DNA of 64,000 bases from Candidatus Dojkabacteria bacterium (GTDB lineage Bacteria; Patescibacteriota; Dojkabacteria; J137): positions 359,772 to 423,771 of the forward strand of contig JBDTVZ010000001.1 of assembly GCA_040006935.1 (NCBI GenBank), given 5' to 3'. The translations under genes were made by a program, and so were the position numbers. The notes under the pieces were generated by a model that was given only the letters and a program-made list of their open reading frames with translations, ran no database searches and was not told where the DNA came from. The number at the start of each line of letters is the position of its first letter. Within the stretch, counting starts at the first letter, position 1. Below are positions 3,428 to 50,902 of this stretch, piece after piece.

Positions 3428-3584
3428 AAATCAATTAAAATTTAAAAGAATTTCAATTAAAAGTGAATAGCAACTATTGAGATTCTTCTTTTAATTTTTA
3501 ATTCTTAATTTATAATTGTTAGGATTATACCAGCTATCACATAGCTATTCCAAGACTAAATATAGAAATCATGTGTTAAAATTG

Positions 3585-6058: not shown

Positions 6059-6099
6059 TTTATATAAGCCCGTGAGATTCAGTAGGCAGTGCCTATTCC

Positions 6100-6275
6100 T
6101 TGAGATTCGCAGTGGACGCATTTACGATTGGGATATGTGAATCGTAGGGGACGCATTTAAGATTGAAATATGAGATTCGTAGGGGACGCATTTATGCGTC
6201 CCTCATTGAATGCCAGGATCAAAGAGCAATCCAACTTCATGCGGTAATGAACTGCCAGGAGAGAGGATGAGGTGG
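6100..6275 (+). repeat. composite repeat family A: tandem GAGATTC-GTAGGGGACGCA units (full REP-like palindrome 6179-6205) plus a conserved ~70-nt tail ending GATGAGGTGG
   Basis: Related copies at 16193-16333, 27961-28062 (inverted), 30141-30219 and a partial copy at 39637-39670. Confidence 0.75.
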
Positions 6276-6303
6276 TATTATAAAATATTATTAAATTAAT
6301 CAC

Positions 6304-6771
6304 ATGCAGGAATCTAAATTCTATAGAACAAATATTTTACCTTCACTACCTATCCATCAAATATATATTTGGTTTGTAACATCCGACAACAAGATGGTTT
6401 TGGTTAAAACCAAAAGTGGAAGTTATCAATTACCTGGAGGAAAGCCTCTCTTAAACGAAACGAAAGAAGACACATTAAGTAGAGAATTATTTGAGGAATC
6501 AGGAATTAAAATAGAAAATATGAAACCTCAATTATTTGGTTATTACTTAGTAAAGAACGACCCATATTGGCCTGAACCTGAGTATCTGCAATTAAGATAT
6601 TTCTTCAAATCTAATAGAAATTCCACTGATTTCACCTTAGAAACTAATGAACCTGATGATAACGATAAAATTGTTAAAGCAGAATTTATAAATGCATCTC
6701 AGATTTTCGATTACATAACTTGGATGAAGGTTGAACCTGATGAATACAATGCTTTCTCATCTATGATATAA
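6304..6771 (+). CDS. NUDIX hydrolase
   Basis: Nudix box GGKPLLNETKEDTLSRELFEESGI (GX5EX7REUXEEXGU). Confidence 0.8.
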   Translation: MQESKFYRTNILPSLPIHQIYIWFVTSDNKMVLVKTKSGSYQLPGGKPLLNETKEDTLSRELFEESGIKIENMKPQLFGYYLVKNDPYWPEPEYLQLRYFFKSNRNSTDFTLETNEPDDNDKIVKAEFINASQIFDYITWMKVEPDEYNAFSSMI

Positions 6772-8568: not shown

Positions 8569-8620
8569 TGTCGAGTTAAAAGTAAGGAAATGAAATTAAA
8601 AGCATTATTGGGTTTGATTT

Positions 8621-8676
8621 GAGATTCATCTTTTAACCTGCCTGCCGGTAGGCAGGTTCTTAATTCTTAATTGATT
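8621..8676. repeat. AT-rich intergenic motif GAGATTCATCTTTTAA...TTAATTCTTAATT with embedded palindrome AACCTGCCTGCCGGTAGGCAGGTT
   Basis: The same motif recurs at 3479-3510, 4362-4400 and 4995-5033; the palindrome is related to family C repeats. Confidence 0.55.
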
Positions 8677-16192: not shown

Positions 16193-16333
16193 ATGAGATT
16201 CTGTAGGGGACGCATTTATGCGTCCCTCATAAAGTGCCAGGTCAAAGAGTAATCCCCGCCTGCTCCCGACTAGCAGGAGGGAGGGCGGGCACTTCATGCA
16301 GTATTAAACTGCCAGGAGAGTAGATGAGGTGGG
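16193..16333 (+). repeat. composite repeat family A copy with GTAGGGGACGCATTTATGCGTCCCTC palindrome and a 35-nt GC-rich insert
   Basis: Aligns to 6172-6275. Confidence 0.75.
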
Positions 16334-16391
16334 CTAAAGTCAACATAAATCGAAATAAGGCCGCACAAAGTCAATAGTGTATTTTTGGTGC

Positions 16392-27430: not shown

Positions 27431-27934
27431 ATGAATCATACAGACGAGAAATTACTTTTAGAAATAATATTAGAACATACTAGGAATAAGAGAGTCTTAG
27501 ACTTAACTGGTGGGATGTACACATTAGACTTAATCGAAAACGGTGCATCCGAAGTAATGGTAAACGAGAATAGAAAATCAGAAGTGACTAAATTAAAGAA
27601 AATGTCTGAAAGTGAAGTCAAGATAAGTCTTATGGATTTAGAATTTACAGAGTTTATTGAACTTTGTGAAGAAATTCATGAGAAGTTTGATTTGATAGTT
27701 TTCCACGATGATAGATTCCTCAACACAGATTTTGATTTACAGAAAGAACATAAGGAAATTATTCGTCAACTGCAAAATGAACTATTAAATGATGCCGGAA
27801 TTTTATTCTTTATAGTTAGGCAAAGTACCTTCATTTTGGATGACTATTTAAAACCCGGAGCAGACAAGTTAACTAAAAAGTTAAACGTTGATCCAGAAAA
27901 AAGAGCATTCCAATGCTGGGCATTTTATAATTGA
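27431..27934 (+). CDS. hypothetical protein, weakly methyltransferase-like (VLDLTGG)
   Basis: ORF only. Confidence 0.4.
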   Translation: MNHTDEKLLLEIILEHTRNKRVLDLTGGMYTLDLIENGASEVMVNENRKSEVTKLKKMSESEVKISLMDLEFTEFIELCEEIHEKFDLIVFHDDRFLNTDFDLQKEHKEIIRQLQNELLNDAGILFFIVRQSTFILDDYLKPGADKLTKKLNVDPEKRAFQCWAFYN

Positions 27935-27960
27935 CACCTTGGTGTCATTGCTTGACATTA

Positions 27961-28062
27961 CCACCTCATTTACTCTTGTAGCAGTTTGATACTGCATGAG
28001 TTAGATTACTCTTTGATCCTGGCATTTTACGAGGGACGCATAAATGCGTCCCCTACGAATCC
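27961..28062 (-). repeat. composite repeat family A copy in inverted orientation (ends ...GAGGGACGCATAAATGCGTCCCCTACGAATC)
   Basis: Reverse complement of 6172-6275. Confidence 0.75.
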
Positions 28063-28082
28063 CAGAATCTCGGAAAATGTCA

Positions 28083-28106
28083 CCTGCATGACTACGCACG
28101 CAGGCA
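28083..28106. repeat. hairpin CCTGCATGACTACGCACGCAGGCA
   Basis: Near-identical copy at 59036-59059. Confidence 0.6.
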
Positions 28107-28192
28107 CGGTGCCTGGACCCCACATGTCTCTTGTGAGGTAATGCTCCCCGTCAAGGGGGAGGTAGGAGGGGTTCTGCTGACTTGGACCCAGA

Positions 28193-28250
28193 GGTGCAAA
28201 TCTACACCTCCTCTCCCTTTGGGGTCGTCGTGTACCTTTGAACGGCCATA
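28193..28250. repeat. family D element (GCAAATCTACACCTCC...GTCGTCGTGTACCTTTG..GGCCAT)
   Basis: Similar copy at 41863-41930. Confidence 0.6.
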
Positions 28251-28300: not shown

Positions 28301-30103
28301 ATGAACTTTCAAGAATTCGCAGAATTTCTAAATAATGTAGAACAAGTCCAAGGCAGGAATGCAATGACCGAAAACCTTGCTGCTTTTTTAAAAACAACAA
28401 CTCCTGAAGAAGCAAAGCATTTAATGTATTTTCTGTTAGGGAGACTAGCTCCTAAATTCGTTCCCCTAGAATTCAATTTTTCAGAAAAAATGGTTTTGAA
28501 AGCTTTATCTCAAGATTATCTTGATAATCCAAAAAGATTACTGGGTGAACTGGGTGATATTGGACTTGTAGTTTATAAATTAAAAGGAGAATTTAAAAGC
28601 ACAGATGCAAAGCCAAATTCCGATATTCATAAATTGGAATCAATCATGGAAGTTTATGACTTCTTAGTCAAACTTGCAAAAATTGAAGGGAAAGGATCTC
28701 AAGAAGAAAAAATCAAACTATATAAATACATTGTAGATAATTTAGATCCATTGAGTTCTAAGTATATTTCTAGAATTATTGTTGGAGATTTGAGAATTGG
28801 TTTTAGTGAAAAGACTATTTTAGATGCATTTTCATGGTTTATAACAGGAGATAAAAGTTTAAGAAAAGATATTGACATTGCATTCGGTGCAAGAGCAGAT
28901 GTAGGTGAGCTAGCAAAAGTTATTTTAGAAACTCCTAAAGATAAAATTGTTGAAGTTTTAGAAAATATAAAAATTATGCCTTTAACTCCTGTTGCATCTA
29001 AACTTGTGGAAAGAGAGGCATCCGCTCAAGCCGTGTGGGAACGTATGCCAAATTGTATTGTGCAACCAAAACTAGATGGTTTAAGAGGACAAATTCATTT
29101 GAGCGAAAAAAGAGAAGCAGCAATTTATAGTAGAAACATGGAAAGTTTAACAGACCAATTCCCAGAAATTATTGAAGGAGTGAAAGCACTAAAAGTTGAC
29201 TCTATTATATTAGACTCAGAAATTATTGGATTCGATTCTGCATCAGATTCGTATAGAACTTATCAGGACACAATGAAAAGACGGAGAAAATTTGATATCG
29301 AAAGTTTCTCCAAAGATATTCCTGTTAGAGCAATGTGTTTCGATGTGCTTTATTTAAATGGTGAAGATTTAACTACAAAACCTGTTGAGGAAAGAGTAGA
29401 AATTTTAAGAAAATTAATAGAAAAAAGTACTTCTGCGCTTACAATGTTAGAAACAGAACAAATGCAAACCGAAGCAGAGCTCGAAGCCTTTTTTGAAGAA
29501 AAAGTAGGCGCAGGACTCGAAGGAATTATTGCTAAGCAAATTGGAACAAATTACGATCCCGGAACTAGAAATTTTAAATGGATAAAGTTAAAAGCAAATA
29601 CAAAATCTGAACTTGTAGATACAATTGACGTAGTAGTAATGGGATATTTTTATGGACAAGGAGTGCGATCCAAAAATGGATTTGGTGCTTTACTTGCTGG
29701 AGTTTACAATGCCGAAGATGATAAATATTATAGTATTGGAAAAGTTGGCAGTGGATTTAAAGATGAAGAGGCTCCAAAAATGTTTGAAGATTTAACTAAA
29801 TTGAAATATTCTGAAGACGAGTTAAAAGATAAACTATTTCCCGATAATTATGTTGTAGAAAAGATTTTGTATCCCGATGTTTGGGTTAAACCAAAAATTG
29901 TTATGGAGATTGTTGCGGACGAGATTACAAGAAGTCCAAGCCATACAGCCGCAAGAGGTTTGAAAGCAAATGTAAAAGGTGATGATTCCGAGAAAGGATT
30001 ATCTATTCGTTTCCCAAGGTTGAAAAAATGGATGAGAGATAAAGATTTACCAAATTCTGTACAAGAGATTGTGAGAATGTACGAGTTGAGAAAAGGAAAA
30101 TAA
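28301..30103 (+). CDS. lig: ATP-dependent DNA ligase
   Basis: Adenylation motif I QPKLDGLRGQ (KxDG), motif EGIIAK, OB-fold C-terminus. Confidence 0.85.
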   Translation: MNFQEFAEFLNNVEQVQGRNAMTENLAAFLKTTTPEEAKHLMYFLLGRLAPKFVPLEFNFSEKMVLKALSQDYLDNPKRLLGELGDIGLVVYKLKGEFKSTDAKPNSDIHKLESIMEVYDFLVKLAKIEGKGSQEEKIKLYKYIVDNLDPLSSKYISRIIVGDLRIGFSEKTILDAFSWFITGDKSLRKDIDIAFGARADVGELAKVILETPKDKIVEVLENIKIMPLTPVASKLVEREASAQAVWERMPNCIVQPKLDGLRGQIHLSEKREAAIYSRNMESLTDQFPEIIEGVKALKVDSIILDSEIIGFDSASDSYRTYQDTMKRRRKFDIESFSKDIPVRAMCFDVLYLNGEDLTTKPVEERVEILRKLIEKSTSALTMLETEQMQTEAELEAFFEEKVGAGLEGIIAKQIGTNYDPGTRNFKWIKLKANTKSELVDTIDVVVMGYFYGQGVRSKNGFGALLAGVYNAEDDKYYSIGKVGSGFKDEEAPKMFEDLTKLKYSEDELKDKLFPDNYVVEKILYPDVWVKPKIVMEIVADEITRSPSHTAARGLKANVKGDDSEKGLSIRFPRLKKWMRDKDLPNSVQEIVRMYELRKGK

Positions 30104-30118
30104 TTGATTATGTAGTAG

Positions 30119-30138
30119 GGTCCAGCCATGGCTGGACC
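30119..30138. repeat. REP-like palindrome type 1 (GGTCCAGCCATGGCTGGACC) with GTAG head, directly 3' of the ligase stop
   Basis: Perfect 20-bp GC-rich palindrome; related copies at 39047-39067, 50601-50620, 59149-59168. Confidence 0.8.
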
Positions 30139-30140
30139 TG

Positions 30141-30219
30141 AGATTTGTAGGGGATGCCACGATCAAAGAGTAATCCAACTCATGCAGTATTAAACTGCCA
30201 AGAGAGTAGATGCGGTGGT
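30141..30219 (+). repeat. composite repeat family A copy (degenerate palindrome half plus conserved tail)
   Basis: Aligns to 6172-6275. Confidence 0.7.
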
Positions 30220-30281
30220 AATGTTTAAATAATTCATGGTTCGATAAACTCACCATGGCATAAAGTGTCCTCGCATTGTCA

Positions 30282-35533: not shown

Positions 35534-35891
35534 ATTTAAGAATTTCCAATTAATTAATTATTTGAAAATTTGTTTATTGTTCTTCTTCATTCTATAGCTT
35601 TATAACAATAATTGACAAATTAAATTAGAAAAAATATAATACAATCAATAAAAGCAATGATTGGGAAGAAAGATAAAGGTTTGCGAAGAGAGGTGATGGT
35701 TGGTGCAAATCACTCAAATTATTATCCCTGCAGCCCATGAGCTGACTACGAAGAGTAGATCCGGAAGCGAAACCGTAAAACACAAAAAGAGAAGTAATTA
35801 AGGTGGTACCACGGTTCGACAAGCTCACCGCAAGCTAAGAAGATCGTCCTTTACACAATAGTATGTGTAGTGGACGATTTTTTTTATTCCC

Positions 35892-39038: not shown

Positions 39039-39046
39039 ATTATGTA

Positions 39047-39067
39047 GGGTCCGCCCATGGGCGGACC
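39047..39067. repeat. REP-like palindrome type 1 (GGGTCCGCCCATGGGCGGACC) with TATGTAG head, directly 3' of alaS
   Basis: Perfect GC-rich palindrome 8 nt after the stop codon. Confidence 0.8.
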
Positions 39068-39592: not shown

Positions 39593-39765
39593 ATATGGAT
39601 CATCTTGTGCCAAGTATAAATAAGGTCCAACCCCACTTAATTTAAACTGCCAGAACACAGTATGAGGTGGTAAGGTCAATGAAAATGTAAAGACCTTAAC
39701 TTACTAAGATTTATAGCTGTAAAGTCAAGGGTTAATTCTTGCTATTCTCTATTAATTTATAATTC

Positions 39766-40581
39766 TTAATTATTAATTAATATAATCATTGTCCTCTCAT
39801 GACCATAATTATCATAATTACTTTCTCCTAATTTCTTATTCCATTCAATAAATTTGGTTTTATCTCCTGTGTTTATTAGTTTTTGAATTTTCTGTTGGAA
39901 GTCTGAATGATTAAATGTCCGTTCGAAACCATCTGAATAGAGAACTACAATATCTCCTTGTTCTAAATTCACTTCACCTGTTAATGCTCCATAACTACCT
40001 TCTTTGTTAGTATTATTCCTAAATTCTTTTCGAACTAAAGTTCTTCCTTTGGAAGTTTTCCAATCAAAATCTTTCAAATCTTTATTTGCGTCGCTGAAGA
40101 AATATTTTTCAAAAATTTTTACAGAATTAGGAGTTTCAAATTTCAAATCCCAATCTTGAGAAAATACTTTAATTGCACAATCTCCAATAACTCCCCAATT
40201 TAATTTATGATCTTTTATCTTCGCACTTACTGCGACACATGCCCAAAAATCGTTCTCTAGGTAGTCTGGATTAGGATTTTTTTCCTGATTCAACTCTTTA
40301 ACCTTTCTATTTCCAAACTTGAAAGATTCCTCAATTGAATGAGTTTTCGAATAGTTTAAAAATTCATTTACAAAAAGATTAGATGCGAATTTTGCAGGGC
40401 TTGGATTTGGGTAATGCTCTTTATTTTCTTGACTATTTATATGTTCTACCTTAGAAACTCCAATTGGATCTCGTGTGATTCCATCTGCTACACAGAAAGT
40501 ATCTTGATTTAAAGAAAAAGCATCTTCCTGAGGTTTTTCAGAATATTTAGAACCATCGAATTGAAATGAGAAAATTTTCAT
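39766..40581 (-). CDS. PP2C-family-like Ser/Thr phosphatase (tentative)
   Basis: EDAFSLNQDTFCVADGIT, VVLYSDGFER and C-terminal ERTMIILINN resemble PPM motifs. Confidence 0.45.
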   Translation of the reverse strand: MKIFSFQFDGSKYSEKPQEDAFSLNQDTFCVADGITRDPIGVSKVEHINSQENKEHYPNPSPAKFASNLFVNEFLNYSKTHSIEESFKFGNRKVKELNQEKNPNPDYLENDFWACVAVSAKIKDHKLNWGVIGDCAIKVFSQDWDLKFETPNSVKIFEKYFFSDANKDLKDFDWKTSKGRTLVRKEFRNNTNKEGSYGALTGEVNLEQGDIVVLYSDGFERTFNHSDFQQKIQKLINTGDKTKFIEWNKKLGESNYDNYGHERTMIILINN

Positions 40582-40589
40582 ATGTTAAT

Positions 40590-41825
40590 TTAAAGTTTTA
40601 ACAAAGTCTCTGCTTCTTTCTTAGAATGTACTAATTCAAATTCTCTTGGAGTTGCTGTTGTATAGATTGTTTGTTTTGTTCTAGCTTCAAATTCTTCAAA
40701 TTTTAAAGGTCTATTGTCTAGAGCAGATCTCATTCTAAATCCATAATCAACTAGATTTGTTTTCCTAGATAAATCTCCATTAAACATTCCTCCAACTTGT
40801 GGCACAGTAATGTGGGATTCATCTATAAAAGTTATGTGGTCATCTGGAAAATAATCTAATAGAGTAGATGGTGGAGTTCCTATTGCTCTTTTATCAATGT
40901 ATCTTGCATAATTCTCAATTCCTTTGCAGAAACCTGTTTCTTCGAGCATTTCCATATCGTAATTTACTCTTTGATTTAACCTGGAAGCTTCAATCATTTT
41001 TCCTGCATCGTTAAAAGCTTTGACTTCTTTTTCCAAATCTTCTCGTATTATTCCAATAGCGTTTTTCAATTTTTCTTCAGGACTGACGTAATGTTTTGCA
41101 GGATAAATTGTAATTTTTTCTACCTTATCAACTAATTCCCCACTAATTGGATTAATAATTCGGATAGTATCTAATTGGTCTCCAAAAAATTCCAATCTAA
41201 CAGCAACATCATCAGAAGTGGTTAAATTGATATCAATGGATTCTCCTCGAACTCTGTAAGATCCAGTAGCAAAATCATTTGTCCTTTCGTACTGCATGTC
41301 TCGCAATCTTGCTAAGATTTTTTCTCTATTAAAATCTTTCCCTACTTCTACTTCCATGCTCATTGCTTGGTAATCTTCTGGATTTCCTAAACCATAAATG
41401 CAACTCACTGTTGCAACAATAATTACATCTTTTCTAGATAAAAGCATTTGTGTTGCAGAGTTTCGGTATCTTTCAATTACTTCATTTATATCTGAATCTT
41501 TTTCAATGTACAAATCTCTCGAAGGAACGTAAGCTTCGGGTTGATAGTAATCGTAATAACTTACAAAGTATTCAACTGCATTTTCTGGGAAAAATTCTTT
41601 AAACTCCGAATAGAGTTGTGCTGACAATGTTTTATTGTGGGATAAAATTAGAGTTGGCCTTTGAATATTTTGAATAACATTCGCCATTGTAAAAGTTTTA
41701 CCTGTACCAGTTGCTCCAATTAAAGTTTGGTGTTTCATTCCTACTTCTAGACCTGCAGATAAAGTCTCTATTGCTAAAGGCTGGTCACCATCGGGTTTAT
41801 AGTTGGAATGTAGTTTAAATTTCAT
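40590..41825 (-). CDS. uvrB: excinuclease ABC subunit B, N-terminal 411 aa only (domains 1a/2/1b with DESH); RecA-like domain 3 and C-terminus absent
   Basis: GDQP...GATGTGKTFT, FVSYYDYYQPEAY, DESH present; ORF stops where helicase motifs IV-VI should follow. Confidence 0.8.
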   Translation of the reverse strand: MKFKLHSNYKPDGDQPLAIETLSAGLEVGMKHQTLIGATGTGKTFTMANVIQNIQRPTLILSHNKTLSAQLYSEFKEFFPENAVEYFVSYYDYYQPEAYVPSRDLYIEKDSDINEVIERYRNSATQMLLSRKDVIIVATVSCIYGLGNPEDYQAMSMEVEVGKDFNREKILARLRDMQYERTNDFATGSYRVRGESIDINLTTSDDVAVRLEFFGDQLDTIRIINPISGELVDKVEKITIYPAKHYVSPEEKLKNAIGIIREDLEKEVKAFNDAGKMIEASRLNQRVNYDMEMLEETGFCKGIENYARYIDKRAIGTPPSTLLDYFPDDHITFIDESHITVPQVGGMFNGDLSRKTNLVDYGFRMRSALDNRPLKFEEFEARTKQTIYTTATPREFELVHSKKEAETLLKL

Positions 41826-41862
41826 GAGGTAATTATATCATTTATACGGACTTTACACTGAG

Positions 41863-41930
41863 TGCGCAAATCTACATCTCCTTACACCTAAAGGTGTTCG
41901 TCGTGTATCTTTGGGCCATCCGTTTACTCT
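41863..41930. repeat. family D element copy
   Basis: Matches 28193-28250. Confidence 0.6.
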
Positions 41931-42095
41931 CCTGGCATCCAGCAATCTGAGATGTGGCCCTATTGTCCGCCTGCCCTCCCGTTAATCGGGAGCGAGCAGG
42001 TTGGAAGAGCAGGAGAGAGAAGGATGATTTAATAATATTGTGCATAAACCATAGTTAGCAGTATAATTAAAGAATACATTTTAAATACGGTAAAA

Positions 42096-45842: not shown

Positions 45843-45989
45843 AATTTAAGTCCTGTACATATTTAGAGAATTTATTATAATTATGGGACTTCGATGTCAT
45901 TGCGAGGAACGAAGTGAGGAAGCAATCTCACACAAATTAGTAGAGACGATTGAGCTACTCATCTGAAAACTGATGACTCCAAATTATGT

Positions 45990-46061
45990 GCTAGGGTAGC
46001 TCAGCTTGTAGAGTACTCGCCTGAAGAGCGAGGTGTCGACAGTCCCAGCCGCCCTCTGGCA
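45990..46061 (+). pseudogene. degenerate tRNA-Phe(GAA) copy with disrupted T-arm
   Basis: Same acceptor, D and anticodon arms as the tRNA-Phe at 47364-47439, but the T-stem has 2 mismatches and a 6-nt loop. Confidence 0.6.
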
Positions 46062-46139
46062 CGATAAATTTACTTCAATTAATTCCTCTCCAGAATTATT
46101 ATTTATGATAGACTTTCGTATATTTATTAAATAAATAAT

Positions 46140-47286: not shown

Positions 47287-47363
47287 AAAAAGAGGTAAAA
47301 ATTAGATTTAGAGAATTATATCAGAATTAGAAATGAAGGGGATAAAACAGAAGTTTGATAATT

Positions 47364-47439
47364 TGGTGCCAGAGGGCGGACTCGGACCGCCGACACCTCG
47401 CTCTTCAGGCGAGTGCTCTACCAGCTGAGCTACCCTAGC
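47364..47439 (-). tRNA. tRNA-Phe (anticodon GAA), CCA encoded
   Basis: GCTAGGG acceptor, D-arm GCTC-AGCTGGTA-GAGC, anticodon loop CUGAAGA, T-arm GGCGG-TCCGAGT-CCGCC, 3' CCA present. Confidence 0.85.
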
Positions 47440-47507
47440 AACCAAATGCTGATAATTATAATAAAATTATCCAGTATACACAATACTAAAATCATTTTCA
47501 GACTCTT

Positions 47508-50297: not shown

Positions 50298-50600
50298 TAT
50301 CCTAATCTGGTATAATTCGAAATAATTAAATTTATTTCATGATTCGCACCAGAAAAATTCTCCGACATAAATATTTGGATTATTCAAACAATCGAAAATA
50401 TTTCATTACAATTTGTACAAAATACAGAATTAATCATTTTGGTGAAATTAAAAATAACAAAATGTTTTATTCTGATATTGGATTGATTGCCAGAGAATAT
50501 TTGGAAACAATTCCCAGGCATTTTATATTTTGTGAAATTGATTCGTTTGTTGTTATGCCGAATCATGTACATATGGTTGTGGTGTTGAATGAATATGTAG

Positions 50601-50620
50601 GGGTCGCCCATGGGCGACCC
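50601..50620. repeat. REP-like palindrome type 1 (GGGTCGCCCATGGGCGACCC) inside the tnpA coding sequence, preceded by TATGTAGG
   Basis: Perfect 20-bp palindrome, ~75% GC in a ~33% GC gene. Confidence 0.8.
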
Positions 50621-50645
50621 AATGATTTTGGTATGACGAATAATC

Positions 50646-50670
50646 GGGACGCCGATCGGCGTCCCCTACA
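50646..50670. repeat. REP-like palindrome type 2 (GGGACGCCGATCGGCGTCCC-CTACA) inside tnpA, inverted relative to the type 1 copy
   Basis: Same stem as the GTAGGGGACGCA...TGCGTCCC elements at 6179, 16206, 28034. Confidence 0.8.
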
Positions 50671-50902
50671 ATTACAAAATCCGATGAATGTATCAATACC
50701 AAAAATAATCAATCATTACAAAGGGTCTGTAACGCGTATTGTCCAAAATGAATTCAATAATTTTGATTTCCAATGGCAACGTTCATACCACGACCATATA
50801 ATCCGCAACGACCACGAATTAAACCGAATTCAAATTTACATAAACCACAACATATTAAATTGGAACAAAGATATTAATAATAAATAATGATAAAATCTTT
50901 CT

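Follow-up and report, generated by a model that had tools for sequence, protein, structure and literature searches.

A composite intergenic repeat built around a GTAG-tagged REP, and a RAYT gene, in a 64-kb window of Candidatus Dojkabacteria

Family A is a repeat present in several intergenic copies within a 64-kb stretch of DNA (the window) from a metagenome-assembled genome (MAG) of Candidatus Dojkabacteria (Patescibacteria), and the counts of copies and palindromes given here refer to this window. An earlier note had described it as a REP-like head joined to a conserved tail, and had raised a miniature inverted-repeat transposable element (MITE) or a small RNA as possible identities. The head proved to be a GTAG-tagged canonical long repetitive extragenic palindrome (REP), and the gene for a cognate REP-associated tyrosine transposase (RAYT, or TnpA-REP) lies in the same window. 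Family A as a whole is probably a lineage-restricted, non-coding, composite dispersed DNA repeat that is built around this REP and associated with the RAYT. An ordinary dispersed DNA repeat is thus most likely a better description than a new RNA gene. On the best reading the explanation of the head is largely conventional and the kind is already known, that of REP-based composite repeats with a RAYT.

The window holds three full copies of family A, one copy from which the hairpin is deleted, one diverged copy of the tail only and three degenerate units of the head only. The consensus begins with a leader of 8 nt (TGAGATTC), continues with a GTAG-tagged palindrome of 24 nt and a spacer of 8 nt, and closes with a non-palindromic tail of ~75–85 nt whose 3’ end is GGTGGTAATGTCAA; these four parts read TGAGATTC / GTAGGGGACGCATTTATGCGTCCC / TCATNNAA / TGCCAGGATCAAAGAGTAATCC AAC TCATGCAGTATTAAACTGC CAGGAGAGTAGATGAGGTGG TAATGTCAA. 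The tail contains a single 5-bp hairpin, GCAGT-ATTAA-ACTGC, and a direct repeat, TGCCAGGA[TCAAA]GAGTA … TGCCAGGAGAGTA, which in the full copy at 6171 measures 42 nt from start to start (6211 and 6253). That copy (6171–6285, + strand) is composed of leader (6171–6178), REP (6179–6202), spacer (6203–6210) and tail (6211–6275), and is diverged at its 3’ end, where TATTAT stands in place of TAATGTCAA. The full copy at 16194–16343 (+) has its leader at 16194–16201, followed by one additional T, its REP at 16203–16226 and its tail from 16235; the 35-nt GC-rich insert that had been claimed for this copy was located at 16255–16289 and is a hairpin. The third full copy, on the – strand at 27952–28064 (REP 28033–28056, leader 28057–28064), is nearest to the consensus and carries an additional GAGATTC at 28065–28071. 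Within the hairpin-deleted copy (30139–30228, +), which directly follows another REP, the leader TGAGATTT and GTAGGGGA are fused straight to the tail, and the 24-nt deletion covers the remainder of the hairpin plus the spacer.

All of the copies that the earlier note had reported were found again on reading the sequence, and two descriptions had to be amended, one of them being that of the copy at 30139–30228 as given above. A repeat is indeed present where a partial copy had been placed (39637–39670), but it is a diverged full-length tail spanning 39600–39679 (+), in which the blocks TCAT..GTGCCA, TCCAAC, TTAAACTGCCAG and ATGAGGTGGTAAGGTCAA are kept and which has neither leader nor REP. The tandem head units claimed for the first copy were recovered by Tandem Repeats Finder (6101–6194, period 35, 2.7 copies, 84% matches). 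They include two degenerate 35-nt units at 6101–6170 (+), in tandem with the full copy, each with a leader, GTAG or GCAG and a 5’ arm and each having lost the 3’ arm. A fourth, more diverged head-like unit at 6074–6100 (+), identified by eye, consists of TGAGATTC, an A and a GTAGG overlapping the short palindrome TAGGCA-G-TGCCTA. The 33-nt head GAGATTCGTAGGGGACGCATTTATGCGTCCCTC is exact at 6172–6204, has one mismatch at 28031–28063 (–) and a 1-nt insertion at 16195–16228, and the tail motif CTGCCAGGAGAGNNGATGAGGTGG is found at 6252, 16309 and 30195. Both are absent from dinucleotide-preserving shuffles of the window, none of 100 shuffles having any match to the tail motif. An nhmmer profile built from four copies returned these at E-values of 1.6e-35 (28063–27953, –), 3.2e-35 (6172–6283), 9e-32 (16198–16339) and 7e-23 (30142–30227). 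The same profile reached the 3’ 36 nt of the diverged copy (39642–39677, E 0.005) and gave weak matches to the two head units at 6101–6170. A lone exact 13-mer of the tail, TGCCAGGAGAGTA, is also present at 41925–41937 (–), in the intergenic region upstream of a uvrB-like gene. Searching for this 13-mer gave five matches against 0.95 expected, and the lone match may be a tail fragment or a chance match.

The identity of the head was established by scanning the window for palindromes preceded by GTAG. This yielded seven 24-nt units that share a design, each consisting of GTAG and a 20-nt GC-rich palindrome; five are extragenic, three of these being the heads of the full family A copies, and two lie within the RAYT open reading frame (ORF). 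GTAGGG is invariant in all seven, and the GGG/CCC foot provides three consecutive G–C pairs at the bottom of the stem, as in the published definition of a canonical long REP, a palindrome of 20–40 bp with a stable hairpin and such a foot (PMC6006769). The tag of this REP type is a conserved 5’ GT[AG]G immediately adjoining the hairpin foot. Across the seven units 96.8% of stem cells are paired, while five of the nine pairs are changed on both sides. The covariation score was matched by none of 500 shuffles, and shifting the pairing partner by 1–3 columns reduced the paired fraction to 40–54%. Folded as single-stranded DNA (ssDNA), the hairpins have energies of –8.8 to –10 kcal/mol (z –3.7 to –5.0). 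The two extragenic REPs outside family A are GTAGGGTCCAGCCATGGCTGGACC (30115–30138, +), which has a different stem, and GTAGGGTCCGCCCATGGGCGGACC (39044–39067, +), which is situated between the stop codon of the alanyl-tRNA synthetase (AlaRS) gene and the next gene. Within the RAYT ORF, GTAGGGGTCGCCCATGGGCGACCC (50597–50620, +) is in frame and GTAGGGGACGCCGATCGGCGTCCC (50646–50669, –) is inverted relative to it. The latter shares its arms exactly with the family A head, an identity that is counted in favour of the link between family A and the RAYT. Seven GTAG palindromes in 64 kb compare with eight in ~1.3 Mb of loci from relatives; such palindromes are rare in the sampled relatives, and the present lineage looks unusually rich in REPs.

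The RAYT gene (50339–50887, +) encodes 182 aa, stands alone between a yfiH-like gene and murB, and is 12–44 kb distant from the family A copies. Its product is a Y1 HUH transposase (Pfam Y1_Tnp, 5.5e-11). The best NCBIfam match is REP_Tyr_transpos, the REP-associated tyrosine transposase (6.7e-13), at 48.7 bits, which is below the 80-bit cutoff of that model. The sole PDB match of the RAYT-family profile is 4ER8, the E. coli TnpA-REP bound to REP, and the homologues in the protein database are widely called RayT. The protein is 100% identical to MEP7103444.1 of NCBI, annotated as ‘MAG: transposase [Candidatus Dojkabacteria bacterium]’. The motifs NHVH (His76 and His78), Trp146-Gln147 and the catalytic-motif Tyr167 are all kept, their histidines, tryptophan and tyrosine being invariant in the alignment of homologues. 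TnpA-REP proteins of subclass 2.4 are characterized by NH[IFV]H, WQ and YIxNNP motifs and a length of ~194 aa, and have REPs inserted within the tnpA-REP gene with the reading frame left intact (PMC6006769). The tyrosine motif found here, YINHNI, is a near-match to YIxNNP in which the proline is replaced by isoleucine. Both in-ORF REPs sit between the HUH and Tyr motifs and preserve the frame, and GTAG palindromes in the same in-frame position were present inside the ORFs of all three related RAYT genes that were fetched (locus L092, 10316–10343; L094, 414–431; L095, ~615–660). From its sequence, then, the protein fits the published description of a subclass 2.4 TnpA-REP and is apparently intact. 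Because the RAYT motifs, the in-frame REPs and the G–C foot of the stem all agree with subclass 2.4, head and enzyme together are taken as a known kind of system, in which the head hairpin, by its predicted structure, is the substrate type of a subclass 2.4 RAYT. A separate observation concerns a hypervariable protein loop seen across 15 aligned RAYT homologues, which looks REP-encoded; REPs within the gene have already been described for subclass 2.4 (PMC6006769).

The four parts of family A have multiplied together as one unit, since in every full copy they meet at the same junctions, and since the leader and GTAGGGGA are still present where the hairpin has been deleted. Among the three full copies the REP is identical at 24 of 24 positions, whereas the tails are 81–92% identical and the spacers agree at 5–6 of 8 positions. 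By our own arithmetic the probability that 48 independent sites would all be identical at ~15% divergence is P ~4e-4. Constraint or homogenization therefore acts on the part that a RAYT could recognize and not on the tail. The earlier note had regarded the tail as conserved beyond what a palindrome would need, and although the tails are indeed homologous, they are less conserved than the REP. Given that the copy consisting of the tail only is much more diverged than the others, the tail is probably older than its association with the REP. All family A copies are intergenic, they occur in both orientations and, according to the ORF list, they are placed in divergent, tandem and convergent gene contexts, which is the behaviour of a DNA repeat and unlike that of a leader or small RNA of fixed polarity.

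A mechanism can be proposed by analogy with the TnpA-REP of E. coli, which requires GTAG and a hairpin on ssDNA, can transfer strands, and cleaves at CT dinucleotides that flank the hairpin to both sides, also at a distance from it (PMC3479197). The RAYT, as a single-strand HUH/Tyr nuclease-transferase, would bind the GTAG and hairpin of family A on ssDNA, nick nearby and transfer strands. The REP and the adjacent tract of ~85 nt would thereby be copied into other intergenic sites. Later decay and rearrangement would have produced the tandem head units at 6074–6170, the hairpin-deleted copy at 30139, the nested hairpin at 16255–16289 and the older relic at 39600, of which only the tail is left. 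On this reading the tail is passenger DNA or second-end DNA and not a demonstrated RNA or operator. A precedent exists in REP families whose units are regularly found attached to further conserved tracts (PMC3733652). A C^T step is present at or adjoining the left boundary in several copies (GGACC^TGAGATTT, GATTC^TGGGATTC and GAGATTC^TGTAGG). Alternatively, the copies may have spread by recombination.

Several observations weigh against a RAYT-mobilized composite. The right boundary (…GTCAA) contains no CT dinucleotide, and the cleavage rule of E. coli therefore leaves the 3’ end unexplained. No transposition event, empty site or polymorphism was observed. Each element has a single REP and not the inverted pair, as in REPINs and BIMEs, that is thought to be mobilized elsewhere, and the RAYT gene has no flanking REPs. 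Only 5–8 copies are known, all from the one 64-kb window. Finally, the copy at 39600–39679 has kept its tail in blocks, the 3’ 40 nt far better than the 5’ half, which hints at some constraint on the tail for which a RAYT-mobilized composite does not account.

Whether the tail, or the whole element, could instead be a transcribed structured RNA, either a small RNA or a cis-acting element of an untranslated region, was weighed against several lines of evidence, and this explanation is considered unlikely. The fold in question is closed and multi-branched, with TGCCA pairing with TGGTA in the closing helix and with the GCAGT-loop-ACTGC hairpin. On the sense strand the tail is predicted to adopt this same architecture in two copies, with a minimum free energy structure frequency of 0.21–0.25 and with energies slightly better than those of shuffles (z –1.56 and –1.32), which is not so for the antisense strand (z +0.95 and –1.00). 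This slightly better and well-defined predicted fold of the sense strand is the one hint favouring RNA. The closing helix is also invariant in five of five copies, one-sided changes yield G–U pairs on the sense strand, and four of the five copies are co-oriented with an adjacent gene. However, two further copies gave tail-only z-scores of –0.33 and +0.34 on the sense strand, and the copies lie 5’, 3’ and antisense relative to genes. The energies of the tail alone, whether as RNA or as DNA (z +0.39 and –1.78), were near those of shuffles. Covariation in the tail was assessed by RNAalifold and by pair counting on the five tails, with very low power, and RNAalifold returned a plausible closed structure without a single compensatory change. 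For both the RNAalifold structure and one alternative structure no double changes were counted and all measures equalled those of shuffled controls. The tail hairpin and the inner helices are broken in the diverged copy at 39600–39679, in which the blocks of primary sequence are kept. Rfam 15 gave no match to family A in the window at the gathering threshold and only noise (E 4–7) at E-values up to 10, and neither a promoter nor an intrinsic terminator is common to the copies. Together with the lower conservation of the tail relative to the REP, every test run thus left the structured small RNA unsupported, although five sequences give these tests very little power. A coding function of the tail was ruled out, as indels shift the frame between copies. 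A MITE in the strict sense finds no support either, since the ends TGAGATTC… and …TAATGTCAA are not complementary, giving no terminal inverted repeats, and no target-site duplication is shared by the flanks of the copies on reading the sequence.

It is similarly doubtful that the tail is a protein-binding DNA module, recognized by a nucleoid-associated or IHF-like protein or by a regulator of repair genes, that has spread on the REP in the manner of the IHF-binding linkers of E. coli BIMEs or of Neisseria Correia elements. The starts of the direct repeat, 42 nt apart, are separated by about four helical turns, the diverged copy keeps primary-sequence blocks and not pairs, and the extra exact 13-mer lies upstream of the uvrB-like gene. 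A repair-type gene adjoins all five copies (NUDIX, uvrC, the ligase on both sides and the 3’ end of the uvrB-like operon), for which a rough hypergeometric estimate of our own over intergenic regions gave P ~0.002–0.02; this value is not to be leaned on, as the association was spotted post hoc in one window with a flexible gene category, and is in part dictated by the limited choice of intergenic regions of sufficient length. Moreover, 110 nt at 82–92% identity resembles a recent duplication and not an operator, and relative to genes the copies have no consistent position or orientation, being found upstream, downstream and antisense. No known motif was recognized in the tail; by our own reading the IHF consensus WATCAANNNNTTR was matched only partially, and LexA-type boxes (GAAC-N4-GTTC) were rejected as candidates, the only two in the window being inside coding sequence. 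An independent origin of head and tail, whereby a tail family dispersed first and REPs were later inserted at a preferred site, likewise has a low probability, and departs from the composite-repeat explanation in its first step only. The oldest copy (39600–39679) is a tail without leader or REP and breaks at the REP/spacer junction, units of the head alone exist at 6074–6170, and nested insertion clearly occurs in this genome (16255–16289). An AT-rich repeat unrelated to family A is likewise preceded by the leader TGAGATTC at 3478, 4361, 4994 and 8620, so that the leader may be a preferred site context for REP insertion; a precedent is provided by the GTAG-15 dimers inside long palindromes in Anabaena (PMC3733652). 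Against this, three copies have the same REP variant (24/24), leader and junctions, and the hairpin-deleted copy retains the leader and GTAGGGGA. With REP variant, leader and junctions all shared, a single insertion and subsequent amplification of the composite make a more economical account than three or four independent insertions that were all identical. A still bolder proposal would give the tail a function of its own, as a site for protein binding or as a short structured RNA, and would have a domesticated RAYT spread this cassette on the REP to its places beside the repair-type genes, a selfish repeat thereby wiring in a repair regulon in a minimal-genome bacterium of the candidate phyla radiation (CPR), with the inverted copies flanking the ligase turning that gene into an invertible or mobilizable cassette; to this we give only a slim chance. 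Chance similarity or an assembly artefact is the least credible explanation, with a probability close to nil. Nothing was found in its favour, although collapsed or chimeric repeats are possible in principle in a MAG. No shuffle matched the repeats, the profile E-values reach 1e-35, and the copies lie inside the contig with intact flanking genes and differ in substitutions, indels, nested insert and flanks, unlike duplicated assembly ends.

The composite repeat described here is closest to the system of GTAG REPs and RAYT of subclass 2.4 of Quentin et al. 2018 (PMC6006769), equivalent to Group 4 of Bertels et al. 2017. Shared features are a GC-rich hairpin that has 5’ GTAG at its foot and three G–C pairs at the bottom of its stem, stem variants that preserve pairing, extragenic sites (five of the seven units), and a single-copy RAYT with NH[IFV]H, WQ and Tyr motifs and in-frame REPs between the HUH and Tyr motifs. 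Unlike the published system, the family A REP is accompanied by a leader (8 nt) and a non-palindromic tail (~85 nt), both of them fixed, the RAYT is without REPs at its flanks, and the host is a Patescibacteria (Dojkabacteria) MAG and not a member of the Cyanobacteria or Bacteroidetes. Composites that join a REP to another element have been described by Di Nocera et al. 2013 (PMC3733652), who reported degenerate GTAG-1 units adjoining unrelated stem-loops in Pseudomonas putida and P. fluorescens as well as GTAG-15 dimers in long palindromes of Anabaena variabilis. In these, as in family A, a REP occupies a fixed position beside a conserved sequence unrelated to it, and the two recur together in the genome. 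Their partner, however, is palindromic or consists of terminal inverted repeats around a transposase gene, whereas the sequence joined to the family A REP is asymmetric, ~80 nt long and has no hairpin beyond the one of 5 bp.

Likeness to other small intergenic repeats is more general. The REPINs of P. fluorescens and the BIMEs of E. coli are REP-based composite intergenic repeats, thought to be mobilized by RAYTs, that form tandem clusters of units, and the linkers of BIMEs can carry protein-binding sites. They contain two inverted REPs forming one long hairpin, whereas family A has a single REP; no second GTAG- or CTAC-tagged palindrome is present in its tail, and only the pair of REPs in the RAYT ORF has the inverted layout of a REPIN or BIME. 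The BOX element of Streptococcus pneumoniae is a modular intergenic repeat of the form boxA-boxB(n)-boxC for which no transposase is known, and the Correia elements of Neisseria have terminal inverted repeats and TA duplications. These two resemble family A in being modular with variable tandem modules (compare the head array at 6074–6205), ~100–150 bp in length, intergenic, present in both orientations and clustered as mosaics with other repeat families; they have no sequence similarity to family A and serve as an analogy only. Finally, PATEs, miniature elements derived from IS200/IS605, are mobilized by a Y1 HUH transposase through recognition of a subterminal ssDNA hairpin, much as is proposed for family A, and they too are without terminal inverted repeats or target duplication. 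They differ in having similar hairpins at both ends and conserved tetra- or pentanucleotides for cleavage, whereas the tail hairpin of family A (GCAGT/ACTGC) is unrelated to its REP hairpin and the left flanks of its copies are not conserved.

Beyond the window, family A was sought in several collections. The pattern ACTGCYANNAGAGNNNATGNGGTGG had no match in collections of genome, viral or metagenome contigs. A looser pattern gave 11 metagenome matches, of which nine were one gut-metagenome sequence resembling a gene junction and two were GC-rich contigs; they showed no likeness to the tail beyond the pattern and were set aside as chance. The whole-element and tail profiles returned nothing with nhmmer from 80 Patescibacteria loci (~1.3 Mb) or from four RAYT-bearing contigs, and BLAST against phage and plasmid records gave no family A match. 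Searching the protein database with the open minus-strand frame of the element, which would match any spurious ORFs called over other copies, gave no candidate.

The window has ~33% GC and a cumulative GC skew that is positive throughout, and it carries housekeeping genes of an ordinary bacterial kind, among them those for Mur ligases, a MraY-like enzyme, UvrC, AlaRS, ClpP, L20, IF3, MutL and an ATP-dependent DNA ligase. The nearest AlaRS genes (up to 67% identity) are from Patescibacteria MAGs, several of which are labelled Dojkabacteria. Two family A copies, both on the + strand, are situated in divergent regions, that at 6171 being 29 nt upstream of a NUDIX ORF at 6304 and that at 16194 upstream of uvrC (16482). 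The copy at 27952 (–) lies between two + strand genes, ORF 27431–27934 and the ATP-dependent DNA ligase gene, and thus upstream of the latter. In convergent regions are the copy at 30139 (+), just past the ligase stop codon, and that at 39600 (+), at the 3’ end of the uvrB-like operon.

The ligase gene (28301–30103) is therefore bracketed by inverted family A copies, which are 89% complementary over 71 nt. In two loci from relatives (L018 and L023) the orientation of the ligase is reversed relative to the same neighbouring genes, at 56% identity and with much rearrangement. The inverted copies could mediate inversion of the ligase gene, for which these two loci are weak evidence, being too distant for any conclusion. 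A two-copy module of ~55 nt (GCAAATCTACAYCTCC…TCGTCGTGTAYCTTTG), with ~35 of ~55 columns invariant, is present at 28195–28245, upstream of the ligase gene, and at 41865–41915, between the uvrB-like gene and the gene next to it (both intergenic, +). Its copies lie within GC-rich stretches (28065–28240 and 41860–42030) that have no Rfam match.

Other short repeats often lie in the same intergenic regions as family A. At least three more small GC-rich repeat families, each an inverted pair, were observed: 5992–6028/39559–39595 (92%), 16044–16117/18115–18184 (78%), with a further piece at 8635–8658, and 16383–16440/35880–35937 (86%). Their frequent co-occupation of regions with family A gives this small CPR genome mosaic intergenic regions. 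The AT-rich repeat that starts with the leader (+ strand at all four sites) continues as TGAGATTCNTCTTTTAATT…TTAATT, and its copy at 8620 has a GC-rich palindrome inserted; hairpins may insert preferentially in the context of TGAGATTC. The insert at 16255–16289 and a hairpin upstream of the uvrB-like gene (41967–42000) have CCGCCTGC..TCCCG in common and may form one CCTGCC…GGCAGG hairpin class. The heptamer GGTGWCA has eight occurrences, and six of these fall within repeat-bearing intergenic regions or at their margins (positions include 16182, 27932/27941, 28078, 8516 and 18017). Among the six are sites just beyond the left ends of two family A copies and the perfect palindrome TTGACACC-TT-GGTGTCA, which adjoins the copy at 27952.

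Other features of the window were observed apart from family A. A T-box leader at 35648–35854 (+) scored 86 bits with RF00230 (E 2e-19), just below the Rfam gathering threshold of 93 bits. A hairpin resembling a terminator, with a T-run, comes after it at ~35843–35887, and the leader lies upstream of a group of MBL-fold, GNAT and AlaRS genes. A 142-nt inverted duplication (76% identity) pairs 45989–46126 (+) with 47303–47440 (–) and brackets a tRNA-Val and one ORF. It includes a tRNA-Phe (47364–47439) and a degenerate tRNA-like copy that scored 36 bits with the Rfam tRNA model and was not called by ARAGORN. The UvrB-like ORF (40590–41825, –) has only 411 aa, with ResIII and UvrB interaction domains, and is followed by a separate ORF of 271 aa (39766–40581, –) that has only a weak PP2C match. 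In two relatives (L002 and L030) the match to the UvrB-like ORF likewise spans ~410 residues, a figure that describes the span of the match and not the ends of the relatives’ ORFs.

Family A and its RAYT provide a clean local example of a subclass 2.4 REP/RAYT system from Candidatus Dojkabacteria. The genomes of CPR bacteria are small and commonly called streamlined, and this one contains several GC-rich intergenic repeat families at about one per 10 kb. Family A also shows that a long, asymmetric tract can travel with the REP beside it, which bears on the unit that RAYTs actually mobilize, and the case serves as a warning for annotation that such composites are not to be called small RNAs. 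If the tail were functional, a domesticated transposase would be distributing a regulatory module.

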